Program-made: the position numbers and the translations under genes
Shown: piece by piece, positions 20,807 through 64,000 of the stretch
How the letters are laid out: every line of letters starts with the position of its first letter
Position numbering within the stretch: the stretch's first letter is position 1
The notes under the pieces: generated by a model
The model's database searches: none
The model's input: only the letters and a program-made list of their open reading frames with translations
Told to the model about the DNA's origin: nothing
Virus record (IMG/VR): IMGVR_UViG_3300014502_000004
Coordinates: 1-64,000 of that record
Direction: 5' to 3' (one strand)
Length of the DNA: 64,000 nucleotides
Source of the DNA: a virus

Positions 20807-20812
20807 AAGGGA

Positions 20813-21017: not shown

Positions 21018-21036
21018 ATTTCATGGAGTGGATGCC

Positions 21037-22146: not shown

Positions 22147-22592
22147 TGAATTCGGTACTACAAGATTGGGTGATGGAGCTGCCACGTCGTGAGCAGGGTA
22201 CGCTGCTGACAGGGATTCGGGGCTGTGACCTTGCTCCGAAACGATCAGGAGAAGAGTCCTCTGAACGACGGCTAGTCGCCTTCCTTCGTTACTGTGTGAT
22301 GAACCCTGCAGATTCTAGGGAGGTGGATATTCCCCAGGCGTTCTTTCAGTCTACTCCACCCAGTAGCTGGAAGCCGTCTGAGTTTGGTCACTACCCTCAG
22401 CACTGGTACGCGCATCTGATGCATTGCTTCGAGGTTGTTGGTTATCGTCACCCATATCATCCGCTCGCGCATGCAGCTAATGAGATTTATTTGCGGCTCG
22501 TCAAGAATCTTCATCTCAATCCTGAAAGCAAAAAGGAGATGGTCGCTATGTTGTCGTTAGATCGAATCGCTAACGGAACAGTGGTGTCATGA
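22143..22592 (+). CDS. Conserved phage hypothetical protein
   Basis: SVLQDWV..LP.REQGTLL...RGCD; HWYAHLMH. Confidence 0.65.
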   Translation: MMNSVLQDWVMELPRREQGTLLTGIRGCDLAPKRSGEESSERRLVAFLRYCVMNPADSREVDIPQAFFQSTPPSSWKPSEFGHYPQHWYAHLMHCFEVVGYRHPYHPLAHAANEIYLRLVKNLHLNPESKKEMVAMLSLDRIANGTVVS

Positions 22593-23146: not shown

Positions 23147-23159
23147 TCAGGGCAGATAA

Positions 23160-48193: not shown

Positions 48194-48880
48194 ATGTCGT
48201 CGTTCAACCCCAATCCCCGTGCAGGTAGTAGTCGCAGAGTCAGAGTACAGGACCCACACGGTGGGCGGAAGCACAGTCAGATCGTGGGTAGGACAGGTCC
48301 ACGAGCTACTTCACTGGTGGATCTGTCAAATAAGGAAATCACTCCAGATGGTTGGAGAATTCCCATTTTTAGCGGTTCCGATTTTGATGTCAGCTACCGC
48401 TACCTCTGTGCCAGGAATAGCTCAGGTCAGGTCAAGCACGAGACGAAGGATCGAGTGGTACGTGTACTCGCTGGTCGTCTGTTCGTCATGGTCGACGGTG
48501 AGACCCAGGAGCTGAATGCCAACCAAAGCATCGCTCTTGAACGTGGTGTAGTGCATGAGATAGCTACGTCTGGTACTGAGGATGCCGAGTTGATTCTCTG
48601 CCAGAGCCATGACTACGAGAAGGATCTGCAGCAGATTGTTTCATCTAGTGCTGTGACTTCAGCAAAGATGTCACCTGTTCCAACTGCAGCTCCCCAGATA
48701 TCTAGAAGATCAGAGTCGAAGGCTCTAGAACAAGCGGCTCAGTTAGGGGCGGTTCGTGAAGTGAATCGAAAGGCAGCCAGAACTCCATTCCAGGGTCGGG
48801 CTCCTCTTGCAGGTCAGCAAGTGTCTGGGCTGAATCCACGTCCTGCTGGTCCTGGTGGGTTTGGCGGTCCGGAGGATTGA
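48194..48880 (+). CDS. Cupin-domain protein
   Basis: KHETKDRVVRVLAG.L...VDG...L...GVVH.I; AGGAGG RBS; TTGACA at 48123. Confidence 0.65.
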   Translation: MSSFNPNPRAGSSRRVRVQDPHGGRKHSQIVGRTGPRATSLVDLSNKEITPDGWRIPIFSGSDFDVSYRYLCARNSSGQVKHETKDRVVRVLAGRLFVMVDGETQELNANQSIALERGVVHEIATSGTEDAELILCQSHDYEKDLQQIVSSSAVTSAKMSPVPTAAPQISRRSESKALEQAAQLGAVREVNRKAARTPFQGRAPLAGQQVSGLNPRPAGPGGFGGPED

Positions 48881-48883: not shown

Positions 48884-49864
48884 ATGTACGTTCCACTGCT
48901 GCACTACATTGCGGTAGAGGGGATCGAGAAATCGTATCAAGATCCATTCACCGTGCTGATGAAGGCAGCGGTGGATCTATCCAAAGCTGATGCGAAGGCA
49001 GTGCAAAGAACGGTTGAGAGAGTAAGTGCTCAGCCTGGATTCCGAGGTAGAGTAGGATCAAGAACTCGATCTGCTTCTTCATCGAAACCACCTGCAGATA
49101 TGCCATCTGGGTTTCGTGGTAGAGTCGAAACCTCCTCAAAACCAGCAAGTATAAGTGGTGAGGCAAAGAAGCCTGCTACCATGGCTTCGCCGATAGTAAT
49201 GGCAAGTGCTGCTGGTCATATTGCTAAACCAGGAGCACAGGTTGTTTCTCCCTCACGAGCTTTAGTGAGTCCTACCGGGCAGTCTGTTTCATCAAAGCAG
49301 CCGATAGAGATTCCTTCTGGTCATCGTGGTGCGGTTGATATCACACCAAAGAAACCAGTTAGTGCAATTTCAACTTCAGAGACTCCATCTTCGAGGCGCA
49401 GTGCAGAAGAAGTTCGTGCTGCACCAGTGCAGCAGAAGATGGAAGGTTTCAGATCAAAGCAAGCAGCTGTTCAAGCAGCAAGACCAAAAGCAGCTGCAGC
49501 CCAGACACCGAGTATTGCAAGTCCACCAACAAGTTCTCCTGCAGAAGCTGGTGCTGAAGAAGCAGCAAAGCCTCCTGCAAAAGTCAAAGAGAAGAAGCCT
49601 TCGCTGTTCTTTCGGCCTGAAGGTGAAGAGGCCAAGCCAACAGCTAAGAAGCGGGGCTATGCCAACATCATGGGTGCTTACTCCACTGGAGTTTCAATGT
49701 CTCCTGGTGGAGCTGGTGCAGGTGCCAGAGTTCTGAGTGTTGCTGGTTGGAAGACAGCTCTTCGTGCTCATCGGTTGTTGAATGCCCGTAGTGGAGGTGG
49801 TGGAGGAATGCGTCAGATCACCACCCAGATGGGACCACGAATTCGAACGGGATCTATGCGATGA
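48884..49864 (+). CDS. Low-complexity head-module protein
   Basis: S/A/P/K-rich; VLMKA and DLSKA motifs. Confidence 0.6.
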   Translation: MYVPLLHYIAVEGIEKSYQDPFTVLMKAAVDLSKADAKAVQRTVERVSAQPGFRGRVGSRTRSASSSKPPADMPSGFRGRVETSSKPASISGEAKKPATMASPIVMASAAGHIAKPGAQVVSPSRALVSPTGQSVSSKQPIEIPSGHRGAVDITPKKPVSAISTSETPSSRRSAEEVRAAPVQQKMEGFRSKQAAVQAARPKAAAAQTPSIASPPTSSPAEAGAEEAAKPPAKVKEKKPSLFFRPEGEEAKPTAKKRGYANIMGAYSTGVSMSPGGAGAGARVLSVAGWKTALRAHRLLNARSGGGGGMRQITTQMGPRIRTGSMR

Positions 49865-50490
49865 AATCAAATCCGAGATTGTATCTATTGGTGAAGGCAG
49901 GAGCAGATCAGGAATCTGGTGGCCGCACTACGATGCCTTCTGGGGGTCAGGCCAAGCGTGAAGATGAGCACAGCTACTCTCGGCAGCCTGAAGGGGAGAG
50001 TGGTGATCCTACCGCAGACACTGCCGAGGAACGATGGCATGGTTCTGGAACCGAGACTGATGAGGATGACCCTCACAAAGATGACAATGAGCAGACTGGT
50101 GAGGAGCGGGATGTTCAGAAGGTGTGGTCCAATCCTCAGGTTCCTTTCCAGCAGAAGGATGTAGCTGAGGCTCCTGCGGAGGCACCCGGGGATGCACCTG
50201 GGGCAGCCCCCGGAGTCATTCCTGGGCAGCAGCAGGCCCCTCCAGGAGAGCAAGCTTCTGTCGTGAAGAGCCTGATGGCTCAAGCCATGAAGGCATTTGC
50301 TGGGGCTCCTCGTTTTGCTCAGGGTCCATTGGTTCCTCCTCGTGAGAAAGAGTGGCTCAAGACTCAGGGGTATTCCCCCGATGAGATCGATTCAGGTCAG
50401 GTTCAAATCACTTCTCGAATGAGGGGTGAGTTCAATCGTTGGCTTCAAGGAACCATCAGGAAGTCTCTTGGTGGTTTGATGAGGGGATAA
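49861..50490 (+). CDS. Head-module protein
   Basis: LLVKA, VVKS, IRKS motifs; directly before portal. Confidence 0.65.
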   Translation: MKSNPRLYLLVKAGADQESGGRTTMPSGGQAKREDEHSYSRQPEGESGDPTADTAEERWHGSGTETDEDDPHKDDNEQTGEERDVQKVWSNPQVPFQQKDVAEAPAEAPGDAPGAAPGVIPGQQQAPPGEQASVVKSLMAQAMKAFAGAPRFAQGPLVPPREKEWLKTQGYSPDEIDSGQVQITSRMRGEFNRWLQGTIRKSLGGLMRG

Positions 50491-50492
50491 CG

Positions 50493-52409
50493 ATGATTGC
50501 TCCCCCTGTGGACTACACTGAGATTCAGAAGTCGATCTCAGCTCAAGAGATGCAAGAAGCCTATCAGGAAGTGGGACGGTTAAGAAATGTCACTTCCCAC
50601 ATTCCTGTTGCTGCTAGAAAAGAGCCAGGGGCTCTTCAGAAGGCATATCGTGGTCTTTCAGATATGGGTCCTAATCGTGGTCCCAAGTCTGCCTTCTTCG
50701 ATCCTCTCTCACTTCAGTATGCGATGGGGTACAAGGACCGTCGCTATTCTCTGACCTATGATGTTCTCAAGCGATGTGCAACTCAGCTCTCAATTGTTGC
50801 TGCTATTGTCAATACTCGAATTGCTCAGATTGCATCGTTTGCTGCTCCGTATCGAACCACGAAGTCTCTGGGGTACATGGTCAAGCACAAAGACCCAGAG
50901 CACATGACAACTCGTGCTGAGCGTGAGTTCATCAAACAGCTTGAAGCATTCGTTGCTAACTGTGGTGAGCCTGGAAAGAAGAATATCTACAGTAGAACTT
51001 CAAGGGATGATTTTGAGTCATTCTTGAAGAAGGTTGTTAGAGACACATTGGTCTATGATCAGCTTTGTTTCGAGATCGTTCCTAGAAACAATAGAATCCC
51101 ATTTGAGTTTCTAGCAATTGATGCAGCCACGATCAGAATTGCATCTACAGATCGCGATGCTGGTATTGGTTTTAGCTACCATGCTCGAAATCCTGTGGCC
51201 CCTCTTGGTGGTCGTTTCGCTGCCCTCTATGAGAACAAGCAGTATGGGGCATTGACAGGAAGCGGCTACGGTGGATTCTCTGATCCTGTCACCGATCAAG
51301 ATGTGCAGTTTGTTCAGATCATCAATGGTCAGATCGAGAACGTCTACAGTGAGAGCGAGCTGGCTTTTGGTGTTCGGAATCCTCGTACTGACATCTACAT
51401 TCAGCAGTACGGTTATGGTGAGATTGAACAGCTCATCACCATCGTGACTTCTCTCCTCTTCTCTGAGGAATACAACCGTCGATATTTCACCCAAGGTTCT
51501 CACCCCAAGGGTTTGCTTAACTTCAAGGGTGATAACTGGACACCAGATCAGCTTGAGGCATTCCGTCGGCAGTGGGTTGCTACTGTGGCGGGTGTTGAGA
51601 ATGCATGGAAGACTCCAATCACTCAGTCTGAAGGAATTGAGTGGATCAACCTTCAGATGACCAACAAGGATATGGAGTTCTCCACCTGGATTGAGTATCT
51701 AATCAAGATCATTTGTGGTGTGTACCTGATTGACCCAGCAGAAATCAACTTCGACCTTCATGGTGGTGTGCAGCAGACGCCACTTTTTGAATCAAGTCAG
51801 GAGTGGAAGCTCAAGGCATCTCGTGATCGTGGTCTGAAGCCGCTCCTTAGGTTCATTGCCAAGCTTATCAACAAGCATGTCATTGACAAGATCGATGATC
51901 ATTTCGTGTTCGAGTTCGTTGGGCTTGATGAGCTGACGGAACAAGAAAAGCACGAGATGATCAAGGAGCAGATCGCAAGCTACATGACTCTTAATGAAGC
52001 TCGTCGGTCTCTCGATCTTCCTGACATTCCGCTGGGTGATGTTCCACAGAATCCTACCTATGTTCAACTGTTGCAGATCTACAACCAGAACATTCAGCAG
52101 CAGCAAGCTCAGCAGCAGCAACAGCAGCAGATGGAACAGCAGCAAGCGATGGCAGCTCAGCAGGGTCAACTTCCTCCTGGGGCCGAGCAGCAGGGTCAGC
52201 TTCCTCCTGGTGCTGAGTCCCCCCAGGGTGGACAGGTTGTGAGGGCTCCCGGTCAGCCCGGTGAGGGAGGCATTCCTGCTGGTCAAGGTCCAGTTCCAGG
52301 CGAGAGGCCAGGAGCCACACCTAAGTACACAGCCAATTTCGGTAAGTCGATGAAAGAAATCGTTGTGACTTTCGACGATTGGATTGATCAAAAGAGGAGT
52401 GACAAATGA
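50493..52409 (+). CDS. Portal protein (SPO1/Twort-like) with Q/P/G-rich C-terminus
   Basis: RNPRTD..YG...E, YNRRYF.QG..PKGLL, NAWKTP, DMEF..W, IDPAEINF, SRDRGLKPLL, MTLNEAR. Confidence 0.92.
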   Translation: MIAPPVDYTEIQKSISAQEMQEAYQEVGRLRNVTSHIPVAARKEPGALQKAYRGLSDMGPNRGPKSAFFDPLSLQYAMGYKDRRYSLTYDVLKRCATQLSIVAAIVNTRIAQIASFAAPYRTTKSLGYMVKHKDPEHMTTRAEREFIKQLEAFVANCGEPGKKNIYSRTSRDDFESFLKKVVRDTLVYDQLCFEIVPRNNRIPFEFLAIDAATIRIASTDRDAGIGFSYHARNPVAPLGGRFAALYENKQYGALTGSGYGGFSDPVTDQDVQFVQIINGQIENVYSESELAFGVRNPRTDIYIQQYGYGEIEQLITIVTSLLFSEEYNRRYFTQGSHPKGLLNFKGDNWTPDQLEAFRRQWVATVAGVENAWKTPITQSEGIEWINLQMTNKDMEFSTWIEYLIKIICGVYLIDPAEINFDLHGGVQQTPLFESSQEWKLKASRDRGLKPLLRFIAKLINKHVIDKIDDHFVFEFVGLDELTEQEKHEMIKEQIASYMTLNEARRSLDLPDIPLGDVPQNPTYVQLLQIYNQNIQQQQAQQQQQQQMEQQQAMAAQQGQLPPGAEQQGQLPPGAESPQGGQVVRAPGQPGEGGIPAGQGPVPGERPGATPKYTANFGKSMKEIVVTFDDWIDQKRSDK

Positions 52410-53671
52410 GCAGACTCAATATGATCAAGTCGAAGAAGAAGCACACTCCTCTTAATCTAGACGAAAAGAAGAGTGCTCGTTTGGTTCCAGAAGCTGGTGC
52501 TCAGATCATGAAAGACTTTGAGCACATGGCTGGAGAGTACAAGAAGATCGATGCAGCAGGTCCGTCAGCCAAACCCCAGCATGTGATGGAAACAGCTCAG
52601 ATGCATGGTTGGTCTACCCCGGCCATGGGTCAGGTCGGCGAAGAGAAGAAGCAGGCTTTAGGTATTCGAACCGGATCAAAACAAACTACTCCCAGGATGG
52701 CTGGAGCTTCTGGTGCCCACACTGTGTCTCATGGTGGTGATGTGATCTCTTCTGCACCAGCAGAGACAAAGACCAAGCCTTATACAAAGCCGTTGAAGCC
52801 AGGATCAACTTTTACAATGCAGTCAGTAGCTAAGCCGGAGAGTGAGAAGAAGGTTGCCTCTATGAGCGGACCTCCTGAGGGTACGCTTCAGGCCGCCTCA
52901 GCAAAGGCTTTCAAGGCTCTGAAGAAGGCTGCCGAGGATCAGGAAAAGCATTATGGGATCCACTATGGGACGAAAGACCCCAAGGGCTCTTTGTCTAGAA
53001 TCAAGAAGTACAAGACCAAACGTGGGAAGATCAAGAATCCGCCCAAGAGTGCAGAGGGTAAGAATGACATGGCTTCTGAGATGATTGCTCACCACATGCA
53101 TCATCTTGGTCGTCATCCAGGTGGTCAGAAGCAAGCAATCGCTATTGGCTTGAATCAGGCCGGTGAGAGCAGAAATGACAAGTCCATGGTCCAGGGCAGT
53201 CCTCAGTATGCCCCCCTTCGACCTAGCCACAAAATGGGTATAGGAGAAAAGTCGATGGAGTCCACCAAGAAGTCGTTTGATGAGTTGATGGATCTGAGCA
53301 AGGCTGTCACGGCGAGGTCGCTGCCTCGTATCCCCCGTGCCCTGCAGCCGCAGAAGGACATCTTCCGTTCTGCCATGGACATCCCCACTAACAAGGATTC
53401 TAGGCTCGCCAAGGACATCCCTTCGATGCACGCTGGGTATCTGAAACCTGATGTGCTAGCTCAGGTTCGTCGGGATGAGGAAGAGCGGACTCACCGTGAG
53501 GTGAACAAGAGCGGTGAACTGCAGGATTGTGATGTCTGTGGTCGTGTGTTCTCCAAGAGCTTCGATGCTTGTCCAACCTGTCAGATTAGCAAGGCGGCCA
53601 TGTGCAAGGCATGTGGGCATCAGATGGTGAAGGGACGAGACGGCGAGCTTCATTGCTCCATCTGCGGGTGA
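52406..53671 (+). CDS. Head-module protein with C-terminal Zn ribbons
   Basis: QKQAIAIGL; CDVC/CPTC/CKAC/CSIC; many K[AS] motifs. Confidence 0.65.
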   Translation: MSRLNMIKSKKKHTPLNLDEKKSARLVPEAGAQIMKDFEHMAGEYKKIDAAGPSAKPQHVMETAQMHGWSTPAMGQVGEEKKQALGIRTGSKQTTPRMAGASGAHTVSHGGDVISSAPAETKTKPYTKPLKPGSTFTMQSVAKPESEKKVASMSGPPEGTLQAASAKAFKALKKAAEDQEKHYGIHYGTKDPKGSLSRIKKYKTKRGKIKNPPKSAEGKNDMASEMIAHHMHHLGRHPGGQKQAIAIGLNQAGESRNDKSMVQGSPQYAPLRPSHKMGIGEKSMESTKKSFDELMDLSKAVTARSLPRIPRALQPQKDIFRSAMDIPTNKDSRLAKDIPSMHAGYLKPDVLAQVRRDEEERTHREVNKSGELQDCDVCGRVFSKSFDACPTCQISKAAMCKACGHQMVKGRDGELHCSICG

Positions 53672-53675
53672 GGTC

Positions 53676-54959
53676 ATGCTCCTGACTGCGACTCAGCTTT
53701 TCGATCTGGCGAGTGACTTGCTCAAGTCTAAGCAGCATCCGACTCAGACGGGGCCACGGGGAGGTAAGTTCTACCTCACGCAGTCAGGGGAGAAGATCTA
53801 TGTTGAGGAAGGTGTGGTTGGAAAGAAGATCAAGGGTGAGACAGAGCCTCCTCAGCTTCTTCTTCACACTACGAGTGCTCCTCATCTTGTTGAGTCCAAG
53901 AAGGATGTTGAGGTTAAGATCGTACCTGGGAAGAAGGAGCTTCCAGCTAGATTCCAATCCAAGATGAAGGTTGGCCATCCTAAGCGAAGCTACATTCGAG
54001 CCCAGGAAAGCAGCAACTGGCCAGCCTATTTTTGTCGAAACTGTAATTCAGCAATCGTCCCTAATCATGATCACCCTGTGACAGTTCAGAGGGTAATTAG
54101 GAATCCACGAACGAATCAGGTTGAAGGTCGTGTTGGGGAGACTGTAGGTAATACAACTGATGTGACACAGATCAATCCCAAAACTGGAGAGAAGAAGTAC
54201 ATCGATCCTCCAGATCCTGCTGCTGTGGCTCAGAAACTCTGCCCCACTTGTTTCAAGCAGCATGCGGTCCAGAGTCGTGAGGTCACAGGTCGTGTTCCAG
54301 CTCTTAAGCTGACTGTAGCGAGCCGGACCAAGATGAAGGAAGTCAAGGCTGCTGCCAAGCTTCTTGAGGGAGCACTGAAGAAGCTTCCGATCAAACGGTC
54401 TAAGGAGGAGCAGAGGTCAATTAGGGAGCATGAGGCTACCCAGGCTACTCAGGCCAGAGCAGAAGCCAAAAGGCTCAAAGCTGCTGGTCTTCCAACGACT
54501 GTGCGTCGTGAGCGAGAAGCAGCTGCAATGAATAGGGAAGAGACAGAGGCTCAGGCAAAGATCAGAACTAGGTTCAAGAATCATCTCATCAGACAGGGGA
54601 CGGATGAGGCTACGGCTAGTGAGTCAGCCAACAAGATGACCCCTGTTGAGATTCGACAGTTCCGTGATCAGTCTGCTCATGAAGAGTCAGTTAGAGGTGA
54701 GGAGACACGGCAGAGGTTAGGGAAGGAGCTGGAAGGAAAGAAGCTAGTCCGTGTTGTAGGAATGAGCCAGCTCATGGATTTGATGGAACGTCGCAAGCAT
54801 GGTGTTCCTGGAAGTGAAGAGGAGCATGGTGCTACATTCGAGGGGTTGAACCCAACCAAGGCTCGTCAGGATGAAGCGACACGGACAGAGAAGTTACGAG
54901 ATCGTCAAGAGAAGGAATCCAAGATCAAGAAGAGTGTTGGTCTTTGGATGTCCGTATAG
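53676..54959 (+). CDS. Head-module protein (GPRGG motif, Zn finger)
   Basis: DLLKS..TGPRGGKFY; CRNC...CPTC. Confidence 0.65.
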   Translation: MLLTATQLFDLASDLLKSKQHPTQTGPRGGKFYLTQSGEKIYVEEGVVGKKIKGETEPPQLLLHTTSAPHLVESKKDVEVKIVPGKKELPARFQSKMKVGHPKRSYIRAQESSNWPAYFCRNCNSAIVPNHDHPVTVQRVIRNPRTNQVEGRVGETVGNTTDVTQINPKTGEKKYIDPPDPAAVAQKLCPTCFKQHAVQSREVTGRVPALKLTVASRTKMKEVKAAAKLLEGALKKLPIKRSKEEQRSIREHEATQATQARAEAKRLKAAGLPTTVRREREAAAMNREETEAQAKIRTRFKNHLIRQGTDEATASESANKMTPVEIRQFRDQSAHEESVRGEETRQRLGKELEGKKLVRVVGMSQLMDLMERRKHGVPGSEEEHGATFEGLNPTKARQDEATRTEKLRDRQEKESKIKKSVGLWMSV

Positions 54960-54969
54960 GAGAAGATAG

Positions 54970-55437
54970 ATGCCTCACAACCCGTATGCAGGCCACATTC
55001 CCCTCAATCTCCGCAACAGCAAGACTGATGAGGAGCTGAGCAAGTCCACGAGCTATCGAGAGGGGATCACGCACCCAACTGAGTACCGCACACCCCAGCA
55101 GGACCCTTCTCTGCTGAGGAACGAAGGCTGCACTCCTCTTCGTCGCTACCCTGATGGCAGGCTCGACACCGAGTTTGTGGCCAGCCAGGTTATCGACATG
55201 ATCCACAAGGCTGAGAGTGGTGGCAACCTGACTAGCTTTGAGCAGTCCATTCTCACTCTGATCCTCCCTCAGAAGTTCCAGCTGGTGAATCCCAAGATTG
55301 CTGGAACCATGGCCAGGATGACAGAGGAGGAGCGGGGTCTGGTTTCTCTTCGTGTGCTTCGACATATGAATGAGGAGCTGAACTGGAACACCGGCAGGGG
55401 CGGTTCGGTGCCGTTCCACCATGTCACAAAGAGTTAG
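54970..55437 (+). CDS. Head-module protein
   Basis: AGGAG RBS. Confidence 0.65.
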   Translation: MPHNPYAGHIPLNLRNSKTDEELSKSTSYREGITHPTEYRTPQQDPSLLRNEGCTPLRRYPDGRLDTEFVASQVIDMIHKAESGGNLTSFEQSILTLILPQKFQLVNPKIAGTMARMTEEERGLVSLRVLRHMNEELNWNTGRGGSVPFHHVTKS

Positions 55438-55657
55438 GCTTCAGGTTCCTGAGGACTTGAGCACCGATGATGTGATCAAGTCTTTGGAGGCAACCATCGA
55501 GACGCTGAGGAAGGGTGGTCCAGATCCCGACCTCAGTGTTTTGTTATCTGGAGAGAACCCTGCAGCGTCTCATCTGGTGAAGTTTGTAGATGATTCATTT
55601 GATATCATGATGAATAGTCTGGCCAAGGAAATATCCAAGGTACTTAGCTCAAAATGA
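55421..55657 (+). CDS. Small head-module protein
   Basis: DVIKS motif; tiling. Confidence 0.55.
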   Translation: MSQRVRLQVPEDLSTDDVIKSLEATIETLRKGGPDPDLSVLLSGENPAASHLVKFVDDSFDIMMNSLAKEISKVLSSK

Positions 55658-55830
55658 AGTCTACTATTTCTCAGAGACTTACTGTAAAGAAATCACTGTC
55701 TACAGATGGTGATCGTATTTTGAAACTTCTGGTTAATGAGTATCATATGCAGCACATGGATGCAGTTAAGTTGATGATGGACGGTGGACCGATGTTAGCT
55801 GTGGCGTTGATTAAACTTACACAGGGGTAG
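55654..55830 (+). CDS. 58-aa protein (not in ORF track)
   Basis: MKSTISQRLTVKKSL...; ATGA overlap, fills gap exactly. Confidence 0.5.
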   Translation: MKSTISQRLTVKKSLSTDGDRILKLLVNEYHMQHMDAVKLMMDGGPMLAVALIKLTQG

Positions 55831-55833
55831 AGC

Positions 55834-57174
55834 ATGCTCATCTATCTTGATGAGGGTCTGTTTAAGATTTCAGACAAATTGTGGAAAGCTCTACCTAAGG
55901 GTAAAGAGGCATTTGGTAGTCGTCTGTCCAGATACGATGAGCCGGCTACACCAAAGGTGGCGAAACCTGCTGTTGCTGCAGTTCCAAAACCTACTACTCC
56001 TGCTCCCGTGCGTGGGCCAGACGTTTCGTCTCCAGGTCATCAGCTGGCCACACACGAAGCAGCTGCTGGTCATGCCCAACATGGGTACATGATGCACATG
56101 CTGAATAATGAACCAGAACATGCCAGAAAAATGTTGGGCATGTATCAGACTCACACTGCTCGTGCTGGTATTCTGAAGCAGCAGGGAGCTGTGACTACTC
56201 CACAACATCACGAAGATTTAGCTGTTCATTATCACTTGAATCGAGATCAGTATTCTGGGAGTAAGACTCCTGTTTATTCTAGAATCAAAGCTCATCTTCA
56301 GCACGCTGGTCATCCTCCTGGGACTGACATCAATGATGTAGCGGAAGCTCATGCTACCAAGACCAAAGAATCTGCAGAAGGGGGGTATGGTCCGTATAGT
56401 TCCAGCAACAATAAGATGGGGACAGCGGCTCCTTATGCAGATAAGCCGATTGGTGCTGAGGAAGGGACTTCAGTTAGGCGTCGGGTAGCGAAGTCTTTGA
56501 TTGATTGGGATTGTGATCTCATCAAAGCTAAGGTTGGTAGACATATTGATCTTTCCAAGGATGCTTTGCAGAGGAAGCTCAACGGTGGTCACTATTCTTT
56601 GGTGTCAGCTGGCAGGAACATAGAAGACCCAGAAGAGAAGGATCTGCCAGAGAATCATCCCAAGTTCTTAGCCAGGCATGAGAAGCTTAGAAGTGATCTA
56701 ATCAACCATGGATTAGATCACACTGAGGTTGAAGGTCATTGGGGTGGTAAAGAGAAGTCATTTCTAGTTCATCATGTACCAAAGGCTAAGGTTGCCACTC
56801 CTAGGAATGTGATGACAAAGACATTCATGGTTCATCACAATGATCCTAGTGAGCATAGCACTGTCAGAGATCTGGCTAAGAAGTACAATCAGAATAGTGT
56901 CATCCACTCAAAAGGTGGATATCATGAGTGCCATTATGTAACTGGTGCAGATGCAGGAACCCATAACAAAGGCGCAGGTCATACTCTGAAGCCTGAAGCT
57001 ACAGACTTGTACACTGAAGTTCCTCATCCCAACAAGACATCAACCAAGTTTGAGCTGAAGTTGGATTGGAATAACAAGCATCCTGCAAAGACTGCTGTAC
57101 TGAAATCACTGACAAGACTGTACATCAACAAGACGAGTCTGAAGAAGGCGTTTCCTCTCTTCATTCGTCTGTAG
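55834..57174 (+). CDS. Head-module protein containing a T3 gp0.3-like SAM lyase domain
   Basis: YSLVSAGR...RH...GHW..KEKS..V...VRDLA...QNSVI aligns with T3 SAMase motifs as recalled. Confidence 0.65.
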   Translation: MLIYLDEGLFKISDKLWKALPKGKEAFGSRLSRYDEPATPKVAKPAVAAVPKPTTPAPVRGPDVSSPGHQLATHEAAAGHAQHGYMMHMLNNEPEHARKMLGMYQTHTARAGILKQQGAVTTPQHHEDLAVHYHLNRDQYSGSKTPVYSRIKAHLQHAGHPPGTDINDVAEAHATKTKESAEGGYGPYSSSNNKMGTAAPYADKPIGAEEGTSVRRRVAKSLIDWDCDLIKAKVGRHIDLSKDALQRKLNGGHYSLVSAGRNIEDPEEKDLPENHPKFLARHEKLRSDLINHGLDHTEVEGHWGGKEKSFLVHHVPKAKVATPRNVMTKTFMVHHNDPSEHSTVRDLAKKYNQNSVIHSKGGYHECHYVTGADAGTHNKGAGHTLKPEATDLYTEVPHPNKTSTKFELKLDWNNKHPAKTAVLKSLTRLYINKTSLKKAFPLFIRL

Positions 57175-57183
57175 GAGAAGACC

Positions 57184-57801
57184 ATGCGTAGCGACATGAT
57201 TGGCCCCCGAAGGCTTCAGCCTGCCAAGACGGAAGACACATGCAATCCTATTTTCGTTCTTGTGAACGAAGATCCTCATCGTGTGCTCAAGTCTCAGGTG
57301 ATGCCTGGTGTCACTGAGGGGCAGATGAATGGGGCGTTGCCTCGGATTCCAAGTACCCGTCCTGGGCTGTATCTGGAGGAGAAGGTTGAGAAGGCTCAGG
57401 TAGTGGAGAAGGACTTTGACAGTGGCGAATCTCAGGAGGTCGAAGCTGCGTTGCGGAGCAAGCCTGTTGGTATTCCTCATCTTGGTATTGATCGTCCTGG
57501 GACTCGTGCGGAGGCTGAAAAGAAGAAGAAGCGTATGCTAGTTGGTCCAGTTATAAAGAAGGCCAAGATACATTCAGCTCATTCATCATTGACGGAAGCT
57601 GAGTTGGAAAAGCATCCAATTGGTACGGTGTTAAGGATTCATCGTCCTGGTAGGCGACCTCAGACACTAACTAGGGAAGACTATCAGCATCATATGACTG
57701 GTAAGACTCATTGGCGACATAACTCTGGTGATAGAATGTCACACATGGGTGTTGAAAGGCAACTGGGTGAAATGGGATATAAGGTGATTGGTAAGGACTA
57801 A
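57184..57801 (+). CDS. Head-module protein
   Basis: AGGAG RBS; VLKS, VEKA, IKKA. Confidence 0.6.
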   Translation: MRSDMIGPRRLQPAKTEDTCNPIFVLVNEDPHRVLKSQVMPGVTEGQMNGALPRIPSTRPGLYLEEKVEKAQVVEKDFDSGESQEVEAALRSKPVGIPHLGIDRPGTRAEAEKKKKRMLVGPVIKKAKIHSAHSSLTEAELEKHPIGTVLRIHRPGRRPQTLTREDYQHHMTGKTHWRHNSGDRMSHMGVERQLGEMGYKVIGKD

Positions 57802-57806
57802 GGTGA

Positions 57807-59210
57807 ATGGTTCTTACCAGAGCCCAGATCGAGAAGCTTGCTGAGATCATCCGTCAACATGCTACCTGGTTTGCTTGGCGGGTTTTCGGAGAGCAAGAGA
57901 TCTCAGACAAGGATTTGCAGCAGCTCAAGTCGAGCGGCAAGCTGCCAATGGATGTCCATGCCCAGTCGATCAAGTATGCCTATGTCCTGGGTAAGCTAGA
58001 GTCTGTCCTCAAGGAAGGTGAGTACAAGAATCTGAGCTGGACCCAGCTGCAGGAGGCTGCAGAGGGCAGGTACACGACGGTCGACAAGCTGGCCATTGAT
58101 GCTGCTGAGCTGTCTGCTCACACGAGGTTCAGGAACCTCATTGATGATATGAGGAATGGTCTGTACCAGAAACTGTCCCAGGCCACCAACCAGACCATTT
58201 CAGAAGCCAGCATCAAAGAGACCATCGCTGATAAGATCAGAACTGGTGTAGATCTGAGCCAAGCCTACACCAAGGTTGCTAATGAGCTGGTAGATGCTCT
58301 GCAGGAAACCAAGAGGAATTGGTCACGAGTAGCAGCCACAGAGATGCACTCAGCCCGTCAACGTGGGATTGCTGCTGCCATCATTCAGAAGGAAGACATC
58401 TACAAGTATTCTGACGGTATTGATAGCAATGTAGCTGTGGTCCATGACTACGATATGTGTGATGACTGCAGGCGTTTGTACTATGATCCTAAGACAGGTA
58501 ATCCAAAGATCTTCAAGCTGAAGGAGCTGCTTGATAACGAGGGTTCAAATTATCGTAGACCATGGCGACAGAATGCTAAACCTGTACTCCCACCAGCTCA
58601 CCCCCACTGTTATGGAAGACTTCATTATGTTCCTGCTGGATGGGGATGGGATGACCAGCATGAGTTCACTCTTCTAGATCCAGCTGAAGCCTATCCTGAA
58701 GTGGTGAAGGGCAAGATTCTAGACGTTCCCAGCTACAGGCAGAAAGAGAAGTACACCTGTGGCCCATCTGCATTTCTTGCTGTGCTTGAGTATTACAAGT
58801 TCAAGGATGTTCCTGATGAGAAGAAGCTAGCTGAAGCCCTTGGATCAACTGAAGAGGGTGGAACAAGACCAGAGGATATCGAGAAGCTGGCGAACAAGTG
58901 TGGTCTCAAGGCTTCGATTCAAGAACCAATGGAGATTGATGATCTTGAGAAGCTGACTGATGATGGTGTGCCGGTCATTGTTGCTATGCAGGCATGGCGG
59001 GACACGAAGGCTACACCTTGGGCGAGTGATTGGGATGATGGTCACTACGAAGTGGTGATCGGTGTGGACAAAGATGAGATCCATTTCGAGGACCCATCTG
59101 TGTCGAAGAAGAGAGCGTTCATCCACAGAGATGAGTTTTTGAAACGTTGGCATGATGTTGATCGAGATGGAAAGAAACGAATCCATCTTGGGATAGTGAT
59201 ACGACCATGA
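57807..59210 (+). CDS. MuF/SPP1 gp7-like head morphogenesis protein fused to C39-like cysteine peptidase
   Basis: RNWSRVAATE, C..C, PPAHPHC; then RQ...TCGP, GHYEVVIG, FEDP. Confidence 0.82.
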   Translation: MVLTRAQIEKLAEIIRQHATWFAWRVFGEQEISDKDLQQLKSSGKLPMDVHAQSIKYAYVLGKLESVLKEGEYKNLSWTQLQEAAEGRYTTVDKLAIDAAELSAHTRFRNLIDDMRNGLYQKLSQATNQTISEASIKETIADKIRTGVDLSQAYTKVANELVDALQETKRNWSRVAATEMHSARQRGIAAAIIQKEDIYKYSDGIDSNVAVVHDYDMCDDCRRLYYDPKTGNPKIFKLKELLDNEGSNYRRPWRQNAKPVLPPAHPHCYGRLHYVPAGWGWDDQHEFTLLDPAEAYPEVVKGKILDVPSYRQKEKYTCGPSAFLAVLEYYKFKDVPDEKKLAEALGSTEEGGTRPEDIEKLANKCGLKASIQEPMEIDDLEKLTDDGVPVIVAMQAWRDTKATPWASDWDDGHYEVVIGVDKDEIHFEDPSVSKKRAFIHRDEFLKRWHDVDRDGKKRIHLGIVIRP

Positions 59211-60313
59211 ATCCATTCGATGAGCTTGAGATGATCTCCAAGGGTGAGTTGATTCCTGGTGGCAAGGCTTCAGGAAAGCCAAAGCCCCAGGATGATCATG
59301 AGTCCAAGAAGACTGGTCGTGAGATTGAAATGGAGCATGTGGAAGGCGGTCCTTTGCCCAAGAAGGTGAAGGAAGCTGTAGCTGATGAGATCCACGATGA
59401 TCACGTCGAAGAACATCCTGGTTACTATGATGACAAGATTGGTCTTCCAGCCATGGAGCGCCAATTGGACAAGGTGGGGAAGTCTGATTCAGGCTCGTTC
59501 CGTGGTGGTGATCCTGAGCTGGCTCAGCAGAAGCAGCAGGAAGCCAAGGATGAGGCTGCAGATCAAGATATGGGTGGGGATGATGCTGGGGATGATGCTG
59601 GGGATGCAGCTGAGCCAGATGAGGATGCTGAGATCGCTCAGCAGGACAAAGATGATACGAAGTCTGACAAGATGGCGAGCCTGACGAAGGCTGGTGGATT
59701 CCCATCTATTCCAATGGGCAGTCAGGAAGTTTCGCCTGTCAACACGGATGAGGACTACTTTGATGACAGAGATCCCAAGCGGAACGTCAACAATTACTAT
59801 CTTCAGTTCCGTGGTCGTCAAGCCCCATTCAAAGAGCCTTGTCCGTTGGATCGCCGTGAACACCAACATGAGGTCTGGTCAGAGGCTCTGGGTTACCGAA
59901 TCCCCCTTGAGGGGAACCCCGCTATGTATCTCCGTAGGTTCAATTTAGCTGGGGACAAGGAAGGATATGAGCAGGCTTTGAAGGAGGTTTTTAAATCAGA
60001 CCAGGATGAACAAGAACCAGATCAGAATCCTGAGCAAGATTCTGAGCAGGGTGAGTCTAATGAAGAGGAGCCACCTGGCCCCAAGATGTTGCTTCAGCAT
60101 CTAAATGAATTTAGCAAAGATCAATTGATTCAGATTTCCAAGAAGATCTGGGGTGACGACTACAATTATCAGGATTGGATGGATGACGATTATATTAGAA
60201 ATGATATTGCTGGTTCACTGATGGATCTACTGGAAGGTGATGGAGATAATCCATTTGAGGATGGAATGGATCAGCAGCCTGAGGAATCGGAAAGTGCTTC
60301 CTCTGCTGATTGA
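59207..60313 (+). CDS. Acidic head-module protein with DUF5661-like N-terminus
   Basis: IPGGKA...GREIEMEH...EI.DDH..E.PGYYD..L..ME. Confidence 0.6.
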   Translation: MNPFDELEMISKGELIPGGKASGKPKPQDDHESKKTGREIEMEHVEGGPLPKKVKEAVADEIHDDHVEEHPGYYDDKIGLPAMERQLDKVGKSDSGSFRGGDPELAQQKQQEAKDEAADQDMGGDDAGDDAGDAAEPDEDAEIAQQDKDDTKSDKMASLTKAGGFPSIPMGSQEVSPVNTDEDYFDDRDPKRNVNNYYLQFRGRQAPFKEPCPLDRREHQHEVWSEALGYRIPLEGNPAMYLRRFNLAGDKEGYEQALKEVFKSDQDEQEPDQNPEQDSEQGESNEEEPPGPKMLLQHLNEFSKDQLIQISKKIWGDDYNYQDWMDDDYIRNDIAGSLMDLLEGDGDNPFEDGMDQQPEESESASSAD

Positions 60314-63300
60314 CATAACCAAGGCTCGCAAGGGTGAGCATGTTGGTGGCAAGTACATTCTTCGTTGGTGGAAGAGTGAACGCTGGAACTATAAGTATTC
60401 AGATCTACAGAATCCGAATCATGGTCCAGCCAGTACAGCTACTGAGAAGCACACCATTGATGTACATCCTCAATCACTGAGGTCCGAGCATTCCCCTGAG
60501 CAGGCGTTTCACTATGCCAGGCATCAAGCTCTGAGAGGAACAAAAGAGCACACTGCAGTTATTCTGTCCAAGAAGGGGGCTCCAAAGTACAAGGTCCTGG
60601 TTCGCCCATCCTCTGTCAGACCGATCATCATTCTGCCTCCAAACTCAAACCAAGCTCAGGATGCTATCACTACCCTTCCAAACTTTGCATCGTTGGATAA
60701 CTGGGCTCATCGGAGAAGGACAACTAGAACTGTCCGTGACGCTCAAGGGAAGCCTTGGTTTGAGTTGAGGGACCGTGGACCTACCAGGGACAATCCCAGT
60801 GGCAAGATGAGTGTCAGGTACTGCGCTAGCAGTCCTCACAATCCCTTCCCTGGTGAGCCTCCTCAGTGGGCTGCCAGCCCATTCACGAAGGAGACGGCCA
60901 AGGAGTGGATAAAGGAGCAGCGGAGGCAGCAGAGAGCCTCTGGGCAGCGTGTGAAGCCTGCCAAGAGGTTTCCTATCGATAGGGATAGGCCAGCCACTAC
61001 AGCTCTTGAGCAAGGTCGAATCACTTGGACCAGAGTTCGTAAGCCGTACTCCATTGTGTTCCATGAGAGGACTGGCAAGACCACACAGCGTCGTGGGACT
61101 AGACCCATAAGACATGCTCAGTTCAAATCTGATGAAGATCGAAAGAACTTCTATGCCAAGGTTGTGAAGGAGCATTTTGGTCAGATAGTGCTGTACGCAG
61201 AACGTCAATTGAAGATGTACAATATATTTGATGTAGAGCAAATGGCTAGACTTCTTGGCTACTACGGTGGTCCTGGTCGTTCTTCCAATATCCAGATTGA
61301 ACCAGAGTCACCTACCATGACTGCTGTTGAGAGAGCAGTCAATTCTTATGATCCTGAGAAGGGTTGGAAGTTCAATACCTATCTTGGTCATTGCCTGTGG
61401 TGGGAAAACTTCAAAGAGACAAAGAAGATACTTGGTGAATTAAAGGAACGGCAGAAGATGGTCACGACGTTGGACCACAGTGGTCACACCCATGATGTGA
61501 TCACGAATCTTCAACGCAAGGATATGCATCCTGACCATGAGGCAATTGTCAGTGTAGGGGCACACACAGGTGAGCCAGATGTGAACCTGCTGGCGAAGCA
61601 GGAGAAGCTGAAGGATTGGTCCACCAGGCAAGAGGACAAGATTGCTCGCTTCACAGCAGCAGCTGGTGATGACCACGAGAGGCAGGTAACATCCTTTCTT
61701 GCTGCCACTGATCTACATGAGATCAAATCTCCTGAGCAGGCTCAGGCATTCATTGCTCACTGGCAGTCTGATGGTGGGGACGAGTTCGTGGAGCCCTATG
61801 AGGCTGAGGAAGTATCTAGACCCAAGGTCAAGATTCCTGCCAGCGAGAAGAAGTCCTGGGTGACCATGGTGACAGAGCATCCTCTGCTTTCTTCGGCTGA
61901 GAAGGCGGCTCTACTGACCTTTGCTCCTAAAGGTGATCTTCAGAACATTCGACCGTTCACAGAGGTGTCGCTGGAGTTGGCGAAGAAGCATTCGAAAGAG
62001 TTTTCTCGTCCACCGTCTGAGCATCAATTGGTTGACATCTTTCTGAGTGCCCACCAGAAGCTGGCCGGTCTACCGGAGTTTGAGGCAATGCAAGCAAAGC
62101 TCTCTCCAGTGATGAAGGCGATCAATCTCATTCGAAAGCTTCAGCTCGACAAGATCTCCCAGGCTTCAGATATTCTTAGGAAGGCCAAGAAGGGGGAGAA
62201 GGTTCAAGGCTACAAGTATTGGAAGCGGGAGGGGGTTCCTGGTCACTACAAGTATTACTATCATGATGCAAAGGGAAACATCATTGAAGGGACTAATGCT
62301 CCGGAGGATCATAAGCATCATCAGCCGTCATTAGGTTCTCCTCAGGTGGCCAAGAACGAGCCAACTCAGAAGGAAAACCCTGAGTATTTTGATGCCAAGG
62401 GTCGGAAGATGAATCGGGCAGTTCCAGATCATGCTGAGTGGAATCCTGAGTATGACAAGGATACTCACAGCAAGAGATGGGCAGCTCGTTGGCCTAAGGA
62501 AGATGGGTCTGACTACGAGTACGGTTATCCTGATTCTGATGTTCAGGAGAACAAGGAACTCTCAATCAATACCAGCAACAAGCATCTGGATGAGCAGCTG
62601 CCAAAGGTTCGCAAGGCTTACAAGTCACTGATGGGTTCTGATGCTCTTTCAGATCGTGCTCTTGGTTTGATGGTTGCTTTGCTTGACCAGGCTTTCATGA
62701 GAGTAGGTAAAAAGGCTCATGAGCAAGCAACAGGTCATGTGGCTTTGGTTTCTCTCAAGAAGTCCAATGTCAGTGTGAAGGGTAATGTTGTTTCGTTCTC
62801 TTATATTGGTAAGCGTGGAATGGAACAGAATCAGAATGTGGTTCTTGATTCTAAAGCCATGGGGATTGTCAAAGATCTCCTGACTGCACCCGGAAAGAAG
62901 GACAAGGATTACTTCTTCTCTGTGCCAGTAAAGCGTGGTGGTAGGACCAAGTACCAGGAGATCGGCTACAACAAGCTCGTGAGAAACCTGCAGAGCCTTG
63001 GTGTTCAGGCAAAGCAGTTTCGTTCTTATCATGGCACCAGGCTCTACTCAGAGTATTTCGAGGAACTGGCTGAGAAGATCAAGGGTAAGCCAACAGGACA
63101 GATGCTGGACAAGATCTCTGAAGCCGCAGCTATGAAGGTAGCCGCAGCTCTGGGTCACTTCAAGAAGGAAGGCGAAGATCAGAAGACTCACACAGCTAAT
63201 GCCTTCAGTAGCTACATCGATCCTGTTGTGGTGAAGACTCTCTATCTCAATTCGCTGCATCCTGATTTCAACAAGTCGATTGAGGAAGTTGAGAAATCTC

Positions 63301-63734
63301 ATCCTGTCGAAGAGAAGGTTTCATATGATGGGGTGAAGATCGATATAGAGAACAAGAAGGGGAGCACCAGGAACTGGTACGATCCGAATGAGGACAAAGA
63401 GGGCAAGACCAGGATGAACTACGACTATGGGTTCATTCCTCACACGGAGGGTGTGGATGGGGATGGGGTTGATGTGTATATTGGTCCAAGCAAAGATTCG
63501 GCTCGTGTGTTTGTGATCCGCCAGATGAAGGGGCCTGACTTCAAGAAGTATGATGAAGACAAGGTGATGATGGGGTTCAGCTCACCTGAGGAAGCCAAAG
63601 CAGCCTACATGAAGCAGTATGATGACCCCAAGTTCTTTGGTGACATGAAAGAGATGACCATTCCGGAGTTGAAAGAGAAGATCAAGGATAAGAAGTACGA
63701 AGGCAAGATGCTCAAGTGCGTTAGTCTGGGGTGA
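60294..63734 (+). CDS. Polyvalent protein: sigma-70-like domain + DNA topoisomerase IB + inorganic-pyrophosphatase-like (InPase) domain
   Basis: sigma2 RAVNSYDPEKGWKFNTY; TopIB MRVG, GKRG, KQFR, LGH, SYIDP; InPase IEN.KGS.R, YGFI..T.G.DGD.VDV, DE.KVM.GF; likely GTG start 60294. Confidence 0.85.
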   Translation: MLPLLIDITKARKGEHVGGKYILRWWKSERWNYKYSDLQNPNHGPASTATEKHTIDVHPQSLRSEHSPEQAFHYARHQALRGTKEHTAVILSKKGAPKYKVLVRPSSVRPIIILPPNSNQAQDAITTLPNFASLDNWAHRRRTTRTVRDAQGKPWFELRDRGPTRDNPSGKMSVRYCASSPHNPFPGEPPQWAASPFTKETAKEWIKEQRRQQRASGQRVKPAKRFPIDRDRPATTALEQGRITWTRVRKPYSIVFHERTGKTTQRRGTRPIRHAQFKSDEDRKNFYAKVVKEHFGQIVLYAERQLKMYNIFDVEQMARLLGYYGGPGRSSNIQIEPESPTMTAVERAVNSYDPEKGWKFNTYLGHCLWWENFKETKKILGELKERQKMVTTLDHSGHTHDVITNLQRKDMHPDHEAIVSVGAHTGEPDVNLLAKQEKLKDWSTRQEDKIARFTAAAGDDHERQVTSFLAATDLHEIKSPEQAQAFIAHWQSDGGDEFVEPYEAEEVSRPKVKIPASEKKSWVTMVTEHPLLSSAEKAALLTFAPKGDLQNIRPFTEVSLELAKKHSKEFSRPPSEHQLVDIFLSAHQKLAGLPEFEAMQAKLSPVMKAINLIRKLQLDKISQASDILRKAKKGEKVQGYKYWKREGVPGHYKYYYHDAKGNIIEGTNAPEDHKHHQPSLGSPQVAKNEPTQKENPEYFDAKGRKMNRAVPDHAEWNPEYDKDTHSKRWAARWPKEDGSDYEYGYPDSDVQENKELSINTSNKHLDEQLPKVRKAYKSLMGSDALSDRALGLMVALLDQAFMRVGKKAHEQATGHVALVSLKKSNVSVKGNVVSFSYIGKRGMEQNQNVVLDSKAMGIVKDLLTAPGKKDKDYFFSVPVKRGGRTKYQEIGYNKLVRNLQSLGVQAKQFRSYHGTRLYSEYFEELAEKIKGKPTGQMLDKISEAAAMKVAAALGHFKKEGEDQKTHTANAFSSYIDPVVVKTLYLNSLHPDFNKSIEEVEKSHPVEEKVSYDGVKIDIENKKGSTRNWYDPNEDKEGKTRMNYDYGFIPHTEGVDGDGVDVYIGPSKDSARVFVIRQMKGPDFKKYDEDKVMMGFSSPEEAKAAYMKQYDDPKFFGDMKEMTIPELKEKIKDKKYEGKMLKCVSLG

Positions 63735-63737
63735 CCT

Positions 63738-64000
63738 ATGGACCTCTTCATTGATCTTATGAAGGCAGCAAGAGCCAGGGCAACTGGGGCAACTCAGCAT
63801 ACTTCTGGTGGTGATTTTGTCTGGAACGATTCTGTTGGGGCTTGGACCAGAAAAACACCACAGGGTGGTACACGCCCTCTTGAGAAGGTTAGTGATGCTA
63901 AAAAGCCAGTATCGTCACCAGAACCTTCTGAGAAGCCGCAGGGTGGTCATCAGCTAGAGCCATGTCAATTTGGTGGAGGCATGGAATGTATCAAACATGG
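63738..64000 (+). CDS. Head-module protein, truncated by window end
   Basis: MDLFIDLMKA leader resembling that of the preceding gene. Confidence 0.6.
   Translation, partial: MDLFIDLMKAARARATGATQHTSGGDFVWNDSVGAWTRKTPQGGTRPLEKVSDAKKPVSSPEPSEKPQGGHQLEPCQFGGGMECIKH

Follow-up and report, generated by a model that had tools for sequence, protein, structure and literature searches.

Lys-Ala/Ser signals at the leaders and module joints of candidate head cargo proteins in an uncultured SPO1-type phage

The internal proteins of phage T4 carry a 10-residue capsid targeting sequence that is removed by gp21 (PMC9026906), and DarB of phage P1 is a packaged 250-kDa protein, encoded beside portal and protease genes, with an N-terminal signal of at most 30 residues (PMC9024508). 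Polyvalent proteins and the InPase domain were defined by Iyer, Burroughs, Anand, de Souza and Aravind in 2017 (PMC5512222). Here we analyse a window of 64,000 bases (bases 1–64000 of the single 77,563-base virus contig IMGVR_UViG_3300014502_000004 of IMG/VR), whose genes are read almost all from the + strand, and describe the motif [LIVMF]-x-K-[AS] in its head gene cluster, at the starts and domain joints of proteins encoded by a large island between the portal and prohead protease genes. Because the starts and joints of the candidate cargo carry the Lys-Ala/Ser signal of the head protease, these proteins are probably loaded into the capsid and cut there, and we read the locus, with moderate confidence, as the Lys-specific equivalent, in a phage with an SPO1-type head, of the capsid-targeting and internal-protein system of T4, with polyvalent proteins as its cargo. 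The phage and its relatives are all uncultured.

The resemblance to T4 lies in several features together: IPI, IPII, IPIII and Alt have short propeptides that end in the head protease motif (PMC9026906), this motif is common to scaffold, capsid protein and protease, the genes are in or near the head module, and the cargo is variable and anti-host. T4 cuts after Glu in I/L-x-E, whereas here the residue is Lys with Ala or Ser at position P1′; the protease, scaffold and major capsid protein (MCP) are of SPO1 type; and polyproteins of 1100–2100 residues with conserved internal sites take the place of the single small proteins of T4. Since only Lys is enriched at position P1, the system is T4-like in its working and not a member. 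DarB of phage P1 has a possible counterpart in a giant helicase protein, here an SNF2 protein of 1799 aa, encoded near portal and protease and with a propeptide-like N-terminus, but no methyltransferase domain was found in the SNF2 protein, the similarity being limited to the helicase superfamily, and the phage P1 protease cleaves after Glu (MCP E120↓S121; the arrow denotes the actual or predicted cut throughout). The giant phages phiKZ, 201phi2-1 and SPN3US also have head-internal proteins with N-terminal propeptides cut at a common motif, process portal and protease too and package transcription proteins (PMC10052503); there, however, the motif ends in Glu, propeptides are often 111–254 residues long, virion RNA polymerase subunits rather than a sigma-like module are packaged, and lineage and head size are other.

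As in polyvalent proteins, unrelated enzyme domains occur here in one polypeptide (for example, type IB topoisomerase (TopIB), InPase and sigma-like, or MuF-like and C39), architectures are shuffled, the genes adjoin portal and MuF-type head genes, and packaging and delivery are predicted; Iyer et al. propose built-in peptidases, whereas here the joints bear the prohead protease motif and most relatives are without a peptidase. Cultured Herelleviridae (SPO1, phi812/K) share homologous portal, protease, scaffold and MCP (41–46% identity), with Lys↓Ala/Ser sites at the MCP N-terminus and throughout the scaffold, but their protease gene adjoins the portal gene and the cargo island is not annotated there. 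Compared by coordinates, the portal-to-protease insert measures ~19 kb here (52406–71590) against a 77-nucleotide gap in SPO1. The locus is thus set apart from known systems by its protease rule, its SPO1-type head and the head protease motif at polyprotein joints.

A Lys-Ala/Ser motif confined to the head cluster

A preliminary description of this DNA had proposed that recurrent hydrophobic-x-K-[A/S] sites separate enzyme modules across the head genes, and all 13 peptides that it quoted are present where it placed them. We compared the head cluster (48884–75109 of the 77.5-kb contig) with the 87 open reading frames (ORFs) upstream of it and the 4 ORFs that follow the capsid gene, using shuffles that preserve the composition of each protein. 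The expected enrichment was borne out: 20 head-cluster proteins contain 65 sites versus 24.8 ± 4.7 in shuffled sequences (z 8.5; 0 of 400 shuffles equal it), whereas the 87 ORFs at 1–48.8 kb contain 32 versus 40.2 expected (z −1.4), which is no excess, and the 4 ORFs 3′ of the capsid gene have none. The excess sets in exactly at 48884 and does not extend past the capsid gene, ORFs at 44.4–48.9 kb having close to 0 sites. Enrichment was also found for the motif with Asp at P4 (13 versus 1.4 expected; z 9.7), and controls with Arg replacing Lys, with the motif reversed or with P1′ residues other than Ala or Ser were flat. A scan of all 20 residues found only Lys enriched at P1 (z 7.4) and only Ser (z 7.3) and Ala (z 3.8) at P1′, so that the motif does not depend on the letters chosen in the preliminary description; in the same scan Glu at P1 was not enriched (z 1.0), nor was Gly at P1′ overall (14 versus 12.0; z 0.6). 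Codons at the sites follow background usage, with P1′ spelled by 10 different codons; the signal is therefore at the protein level, and a DNA-level motif was rejected.

A site is present within the first 45 residues in 17 of 22 head-cluster ORFs versus 12 of the 87 early ORFs, defining leaders of ~8–35 residues, and when N-termini are left aside the enrichment of internal sites is weaker (29 versus 17.2 expected; z 3.0). The proposal that nearly every ORF of the cluster has sites near its termini and domain borders thus holds as a rule, with the 467-aa protein encoded at 57807–59210, which has 0 sites, as the departure from it. The SNF2 body in this contig is devoid of sites across 1500 residues. 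Site avoidance within folded enzymes was dropped as a general claim, since SNF2 homologues in relatives hold scattered sites.

The genes for the prohead protease and MCP are located downstream, beyond the window, as the preliminary description had predicted, together with that for the scaffold, and all three proteins bear the motif:

Contig 71591–72526: prohead protease (phrog_1028, E 2.8e-41).
Contig 72532–73596: scaffold protein (phrog_15087).
Contig 73655–75109: MCP (phrog_752; E 8e-109 to SPO1 Gp6.1, PDB 9vel).

The scaffold has 10 sites (1.2 expected), and the protease and MCP three each, together 16 versus 3.1 expected; those of the protease include a conserved K179, after the catalytic domain, and one in MCP is L-Q-K↓A at residue 29. 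The protease is 46% identical over 146 residues to SPO1 gp3.2 (E 2e-35). Protease and scaffold were identified with PHROGs, Pfam yielding no match for either and a PDB sequence search none for the protease. Sequence homology places portal, protease, scaffold and MCP with the SPO1/Herelleviridae type.

The motif agrees with the SPO1/Twort-type head protease rule that had been invoked for it. The phi812 MCP has 463 aa in PDB entry 5lii, compared to 439 aa for the mature chain in 9row, which starts just after V-V-K24, and this lysine aligns to L-Q-K↓A here and to L-N-K↓A of SPO1 Gp6.1. SPO1 itself has 11 sites in the scaffold, five in the protease, two at the portal N-terminus and one in MCP, versus one in total in eight virion proteins encoded downstream of MCP; its portal opens with a leader resembling the 9–10-residue ones here that end DLMK↓A and DITK↓A. 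Literature searches did not find an explicit cleavage rule for phi812, K, A511 or SPO1, and the Lys rule is therefore a putative one, drawn from PDB chain lengths and motif patterns. On these sequence patterns, the best reading of hydrophobic-x-Lys↓Ala/Ser is as the signal by which the phage's own prohead protease recognizes its substrates.

When viral_contigs was scanned for a single-sequence pattern of the 1165-aa polyprotein described below, no close relative came up, and relatives were obtained via portal and protease alignment. One of these, the 25-kb IMG/VR contig G001, is 61% identical in the portal and 76% in the capsid protein and has an island of 10.6 kb at the same place; its head cluster contains 46 sites versus 13.8 expected (z 9.5), and its genes after MCP 5 versus 5.5. 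A metagenome scan with the protease yielded 23 further loci, of which eight non-redundant ones were pooled for counts. These have 105 sites versus 50.5 in the island (z 7.9), 114 versus 19.8 in protease, scaffold and capsid protein (z 22), and 19 versus 22.7 in the genes after MCP. Between orthologue pairs, 17 of 36 sites are at an aligned position, frequently amid unrelated flanks.

Directly 5′ of the protease gene in every relative is a gene for a 74-aa zinc-ribbon protein (contig 71223–71447 here) in which C-x-C-G-E-V-L-V-K↓S is invariant. The 421-aa protein encoded behind the portal gene (52406–53671) ends in a related ribbon.

The polyprotein and its joints

The island polyprotein (60294–63734) consists of the following parts, with residues in the 1165-aa numbering and site conservation taken from 16 aligned homologues at 23–67% identity:

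60294–60323, + strand: 10-residue leader with GTG start, ending LLIDITK↓A (residue 29); site column in 14 of 15 homologues.
60324–62117, + strand: module 1, residues 30–627; beta-hairpin header, beta-rich domain and helical sigma70-like region (~246–620); ends PVMK↓A.
62118–62183, + strand: 22-residue spacer, an internal leader copy, ending DILRK↓AKKGE (K649); site in 8 of 16 homologues.
62184–63275, + strand: module 2, predicted type IB topoisomerase, residues 650–1013 (PF01028, E 1.1e-22); ends DFNK↓S / VEK↓S.
63297–63716, + strand: module 3, predicted InPase-type inorganic pyrophosphatase, residues 1021–1160 (PF18823, E 2e-34).

The start at GTG 60294 is one on which protein P0053 and the Atlas agree. 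Eleven homologues (41–67% identical) open with a leader LWIDLxK↓A[RK]KGE, and in G001, L023 and L027, where the protein is longer, the leader column holds an internal site. The shared leader of the preliminary description is real, LLIDITK↓A of the polyprotein being followed by MDLFIDLMK↓A in the next ORF. At the joints, the K627 site is found in 13 of 16 homologues and that at the TopIB–InPase junction (1013–1020) in 15 of 16; a site M-[IL]-K↓[SA] after InPase is present in 12 of 16, with Cys following Lys in the protein studied here, four residues before the stop. Most intradomain sites, by comparison, occur in only one or two of the 16, with columns near residues 800 and 970 reaching seven and five. 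InPase domains are bracketed by sites at most 12 residues away in L030, L023, G001 and P0061.

The joints also coincide with gene ends. In G001, L023, L027 and L030 a single protein spans the equivalents of ORFs 59207 and 60294 and has a site where the two meet, and P0061 carries the ORF 63738 module behind its InPase, following MIK↓S. Domain architecture varies among the relatives by added SAM lyase, ORF 63738 module, DUF5661 or acidic N-terminal regions. Module boundaries are thus interchangeable with gene boundaries, and swapped modules are flanked by sites every time. Three of the enzyme units named in the preliminary description, SAM lyase, TopIB and InPase, stood up as genuine Pfam domains, and the sites on either side of them are kept in homologues. 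Module 2 is predicted to be a type IB topoisomerase from its Pfam match and keeps the SSYIDP tyrosine motif, S-Y-I-D-P being nearly invariant among 12 family members. In cultured phages, InPase homologues bear the annotation of minor head or virion structural proteins.

The sigma unit fared less evenly. The AlphaFold2 (AF2) model of module 1 (pLDDT 71.6) has sigma factors as its top PDB matches (Foldseek E from 0.015), and nearly all of the top 50 rows in VIA are sigma factors, with Z 6.3–8.3, where values below 8–13 can occur by chance in helical folds; the sigma2 region superposes with a root-mean-square deviation of 2.6–3.4 Å over 78–97 residues. The fold matches, at Z 7–8.3, are to the helical half of the module and almost exclusively to sigma factors. 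Sequence matches, which fall on the same part, are below threshold: one stretch of 30 residues is matched by five NCBIfam sigma models with E 0.002–0.07, far under their cut-offs, and homologue P0061 matches Sigma70_r2 (PF04542) with E 1.3e-4 and 22.2 bits, the cut-off being 24. Protein-language-model look-alikes of module 1 scored just 0.87–0.88 and serve as leads only. From these faint sequence matches and the modelled fold, module 1 is probably sigma-like.

The K649 spacer is followed by the same 'header' motif as the N-terminal leader. This header, K↓A-[RK]-K-G-E-x-V-x-G-x-K-Y...Y-K-Y, was seen after three sites (60324–60400, 62184–62260 and 53750–53810), the version in ORF 53676 reading G-P-R-G-G-K-F-Y...G-E-K-I-Y. 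It is kept in all polyprotein homologues, is modelled with low confidence as a small beta-hairpin, and might be the actual head-retention or DNA-binding element.

Other proteins of the island and its surroundings

From 48884, the gene order in the window is that of the 326-aa protein, the 209-aa protein and the portal, then eleven ORFs to the window end. The multi-domain proteins of the island are the SAM-lyase protein, the MuF-like protein with C39-like peptidase, the acidic protein, the sigma-like/TopIB/InPase polyprotein, the GNAT-like protein and the 1799-aa SNF2 helicase. Besides the polyprotein, the features are:

48884–49864, + strand: 326-aa low-complexity basic protein rich in Ser, Pro and Ala; sites K16, K27 (VLMK↓A) and K34 (DLSK↓A).
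49861–50490, + strand: 209-aa protein; 12-residue leader ending LLVK↓A, C-terminal IRK↓S.
50439–52409, + strand: predicted portal protein of SPO1 type (PF04860, E 5e-21; phrog_12, E 6e-55); likely start ATG 50493.
52406–53671, + strand: 421-aa Lys-rich protein with C-terminal Cys4 zinc-ribbon; seven sites.
53676–54959, + strand: 427-aa protein; 17-residue leader ending DLLK↓S.
54970–55830, + strand: three small conserved ORFs (155, 78 and 58 aa), all bearing a site close to the N-terminus.
55834–57174, + strand: 446-aa predicted SAM-lyase protein; leader LWK↓A (K18), low-complexity linker of ~210 residues, module 232–424.
57184–57801, + strand: 205-aa protein; sites K36, K70 and K126 (three versus 0.4 expected).
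57807–59210, + strand: 467-aa protein; MuF-like domain (1–300) and C39/papain-like cysteine peptidase (305–450); 0 sites.
59207–60313, + strand: 368-aa acidic protein; sites K92, K161 and K263.
63738–64000 (to contig 65216), + strand: 492-aa protein; 9-residue leader MDLFIDLMK↓A.
Past the window, ahead of the protease: the remainder of the 492-aa protein, the 1799-aa SNF2 helicase and two small proteins.

ORF 48884 has three sites versus 1.3 expected, the ORFs immediately 5′ of it having none, and matched nothing in Pfam and PHROG searches. Both sites of the 209-aa protein are aligned in the G001 orthologue, itself just 38–49% identical. The portal protein is ~41% identical to SPO1-group portals and has sites after K31, K68 and K636, the latter two being kept in G001. 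In the 421-aa protein, the leader ends NMIK↓S and a DLSK↓A at residue 299 precedes the conserved C-terminal part; K299, K368 and K396 are kept in the G001 orthologue despite differing flanks. ORF 53676, for which family-model searches gave no match, continues after its leader with a Gly-Gly-Lys-aromatic beta-hairpin header resembling that of the polyprotein. The three small ORFs have orthologues in G001, L023 and L030, and their sites are not conserved in G001.

In the 446-aa protein, the module (nucleotides 56527–57105) is flanked by DLIK↓A and AVLK↓S and matches PF23780 at residues 280–385 (E 4.9e-7; 30.2 bits versus a gathering cut-off of 28), by which it is predicted to be a SAM lyase. The same module is C-terminal in the polyprotein homologues P0057 and P0064, and is bracketed by K↓A/S in all three contexts. 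The acidic ORF 59207 has a homologue as the N-terminal part of the polyprotein in four relatives (G001, L023, L027 and L030), with a site in the K92 column in five of five aligned sequences. The homologous acidic N-terminal region in G001 carries DUF5661 (PF18905), which follows InPase in L030 and looks like a mobile small module. ORF 63738 has a weak GNAT-like match (NF052555, E 0.003), and the leader of its L012 orthologue ends DLLK↓A. The 1799-aa protein, whose gene sits just ahead of that of the protease, matches an SNF2-related domain with E 9e-6; its propeptide-like N-terminus has a site near residue 67, which is K↓A/S in three of five relatives and K↓G in two.

The preliminary description had also counted a peptidase among the released units, and this claim could not be upheld: the MuF-like/C39 protein lacks a motif site, so that no cutting is predicted for ORF 57807, and the C39-like domain is an uncommon C-terminal addition. 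The peptidase is matched by PF13529 (E 6e-13) and also by PF03412 and PF12385, while the N-domain is a conserved protein of ~300 aa found in 52 clusters, few of which have the peptidase. The AF2 model (pLDDT 77.5) matches 'head morphogenesis/MuF-like/minor capsid' entries in BFVD with E 1e-4 to 0.1 at TM-scores of only 0.2–0.36; no PF04233 or other Pfam MuF match was found at E ≤ 1, and TIGR01641 gave only E 0.1 and 13 bits versus a cut-off of 39.65. The N-domain may thus resemble a MuF-like minor head protein at the level of the modelled fold. With its MuF-like domain ahead of a C-terminal part that varies (C39-like peptidase here, intein or none in relatives), ORF 57807 is reminiscent of the MuF polymorphic toxins of temperate phages (Jamet et al., 2017), from which it differs in its fold-level similarity only and its peptidase C-terminus, and no immunity gene was noticed. 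In some relatives (G001 L002:6069–8111, P0046 and P0052) the MuF-like protein reaches 660–680 aa through the insertion, close to residue 268, of an intein (PF14890), for which BFVD matches are 'Hint domain' and 'Intein splicing domain'.

Around the island, a cupin-domain protein (PF07883, E 5e-9) without a motif site is encoded at 48194–48880, directly 5′ of the site-bearing cluster, and a 357-aa ORF at contig 76491–77561, reaching the contig end, consists nearly entirely of collagen-like G-x-T/S triplets. Among the relatives, G001 has three tandem paralogous ORFs of ~655 aa (18812–24905) with nearly identical N-termini (M-A-Q-[IV]-K-[LF]-F-K-F-D), probably fibre or decoration proteins, and the island of the 152-kb relative L014 has 3.5 kb (1413–4928) without a + strand ORF above 80 aa, which may be non-coding or hold minus-strand or RNA genes.

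A possible route for the cargo and its alternatives

In the route that we propose, short N-terminal leaders (~8–35 residues, a subset having the form M-x-hydrophobic-hydrophobic-x-D-hydrophobic-x-K) would recruit proteins into the scaffold core as it assembles. Next, the protease, whose activity would be confined to the prohead, would strip the leaders and cut the polyproteins at module joints, while the scaffold is degraded and capsid protein, portal and the protease itself are trimmed. The freed enzymes would remain in the head with the DNA and exit with it at infection, working ahead of all phage gene expression. They may serve in anti-restriction (SAM lyase, DarB-like helicase), in DNA topology (TopIB) and perhaps in redirecting host RNA polymerase (sigma-like module). 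We infer packaging in the head and injection, the 'day-zero toolkit' of the preliminary description, from gene position and analogy, and cleavage, ejection and the host roles are to be read in the same conditional way.

Several points weigh against this proposal. With only 17 of 36 sites conserved in position, many single sites may be incidental, and some conserved ones may be structural, such as the zinc-ribbon C-x-C-G-E-V-L-V-K↓S preceding the protease gene. SNF2-dominated islands show little overall excess (L016, z 0.1; L019, z 1.3). Leaders vary so widely in length and sequence that a shared targeting function is not demonstrated by them. The phi812 cleavage is read from the lengths of deposited PDB chains. 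Finally, polyproteins of 1100–2100 residues might be packaged uncut, as is the virion RNA polymerase (vRNAP) of phage N4 (PMC5512222).

The last point leads to an alternative that we consider quite unlikely, namely that N-terminal propeptides alone function, the internal sites being uncut relics of gene fusion and the polyproteins staying whole in the head. Internal sites do align with gene starts of relatives, as fusion relics would, and their enrichment is the weaker one (z 3.0); large packaged proteins can remain uncut, N4 vRNAP being the precedent. Functionless relics should, however, decay like intradomain sites, whereas junction sites are kept in 13–15 of 16 homologues at 23–67% identity; the TopIB–InPase joint is conserved though none of the sampled genomes has a gene start there, and an accessible leader copy amid active prohead protease would be cut regardless.

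We regard it as similarly improbable that the proteins are processed but undelivered, acting as internal core or scaffold or in the producer cell and being expelled, or left without a role in the capsid, after cleavage. The scaffold has the same sites and is removed, the island proteins of ORFs 48884 and 59207 and the N-terminal half of 55834 are of low complexity, acidic or basic, like core proteins, and sequence cannot reveal ejection. Yet the folded modules are enzymes against host DNA, SAM or transcription, without obvious use in a capsid; they are shuffled among relatives, as with arms-race cargo; and the nearest analogues, T4 IPI and Alt and the Dar proteins of phage P1, are ejected.

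Cutting by another protease, either the C39/papain-like domain of ORF 57807 or a host enzyme, is very improbable. The island does hold a cysteine peptidase domain, and built-in peptidases have been proposed as the processing enzymes of polyvalent proteins (PMC5512222), but the peptidase occurs in few of the 52 MuF-like clusters while sites are universal in the clade, and in SPO1 and phi812, which lack such a domain, scaffold and MCP bear the same motif. As a family, C39 peptidases are known to cleave after Gly-Gly and are not known to cut after Lys. The rarity of the domain, the universality of the sites and this specificity led us to reject the C39 peptidase as the processing enzyme. That the motif is a functionless by-product of composition or helix periodicity is close to refuted, for although the cluster is rich in Lys, Ala and Ser and some sites fall in predicted helices, composition-keeping shuffles still yield z 7–22, no excess is seen with Arg for Lys, the reversed motif or other P1/P1′ residues, and sites hold their position amid divergent flanks with an excess that stops at the MCP gene.

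We therefore retain leader-directed loading and cutting by the phage's own prohead protease as the favoured reading. A bolder form of it, that a sigma70-family factor is cut from a packaged polyprotein by the head protease, is injected with the DNA, TopIB and pyrophosphatase and redirects host RNA polymerase before phage gene expression, and that SPO1-type phages in general own a modular, Lys-specific 'leader plus joint' cargo grammar, is in our view doubtful.

If the favoured reading is true, the T4 idea of leader-directed cargo would extend to SPO1/Herelleviridae heads, with a Lys↓Ala/Ser protease rule, and from single small proteins to long polyproteins diced by the head protease. The cargo would be unusual, with a SAM lyase, a DarB-like helicase, a topoisomerase IB and a pyrophosphatase, to which a sigma factor may be added. 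The polyvalent-protein hypothesis would likewise gain a testable processing mechanism, with cut sites predicted to the residue, and substrates and protease are encoded on one contig. Moreover, the leader could tag foreign proteins for loading into SPO1-type capsids, as the signals of T4 and phage P1 have done.

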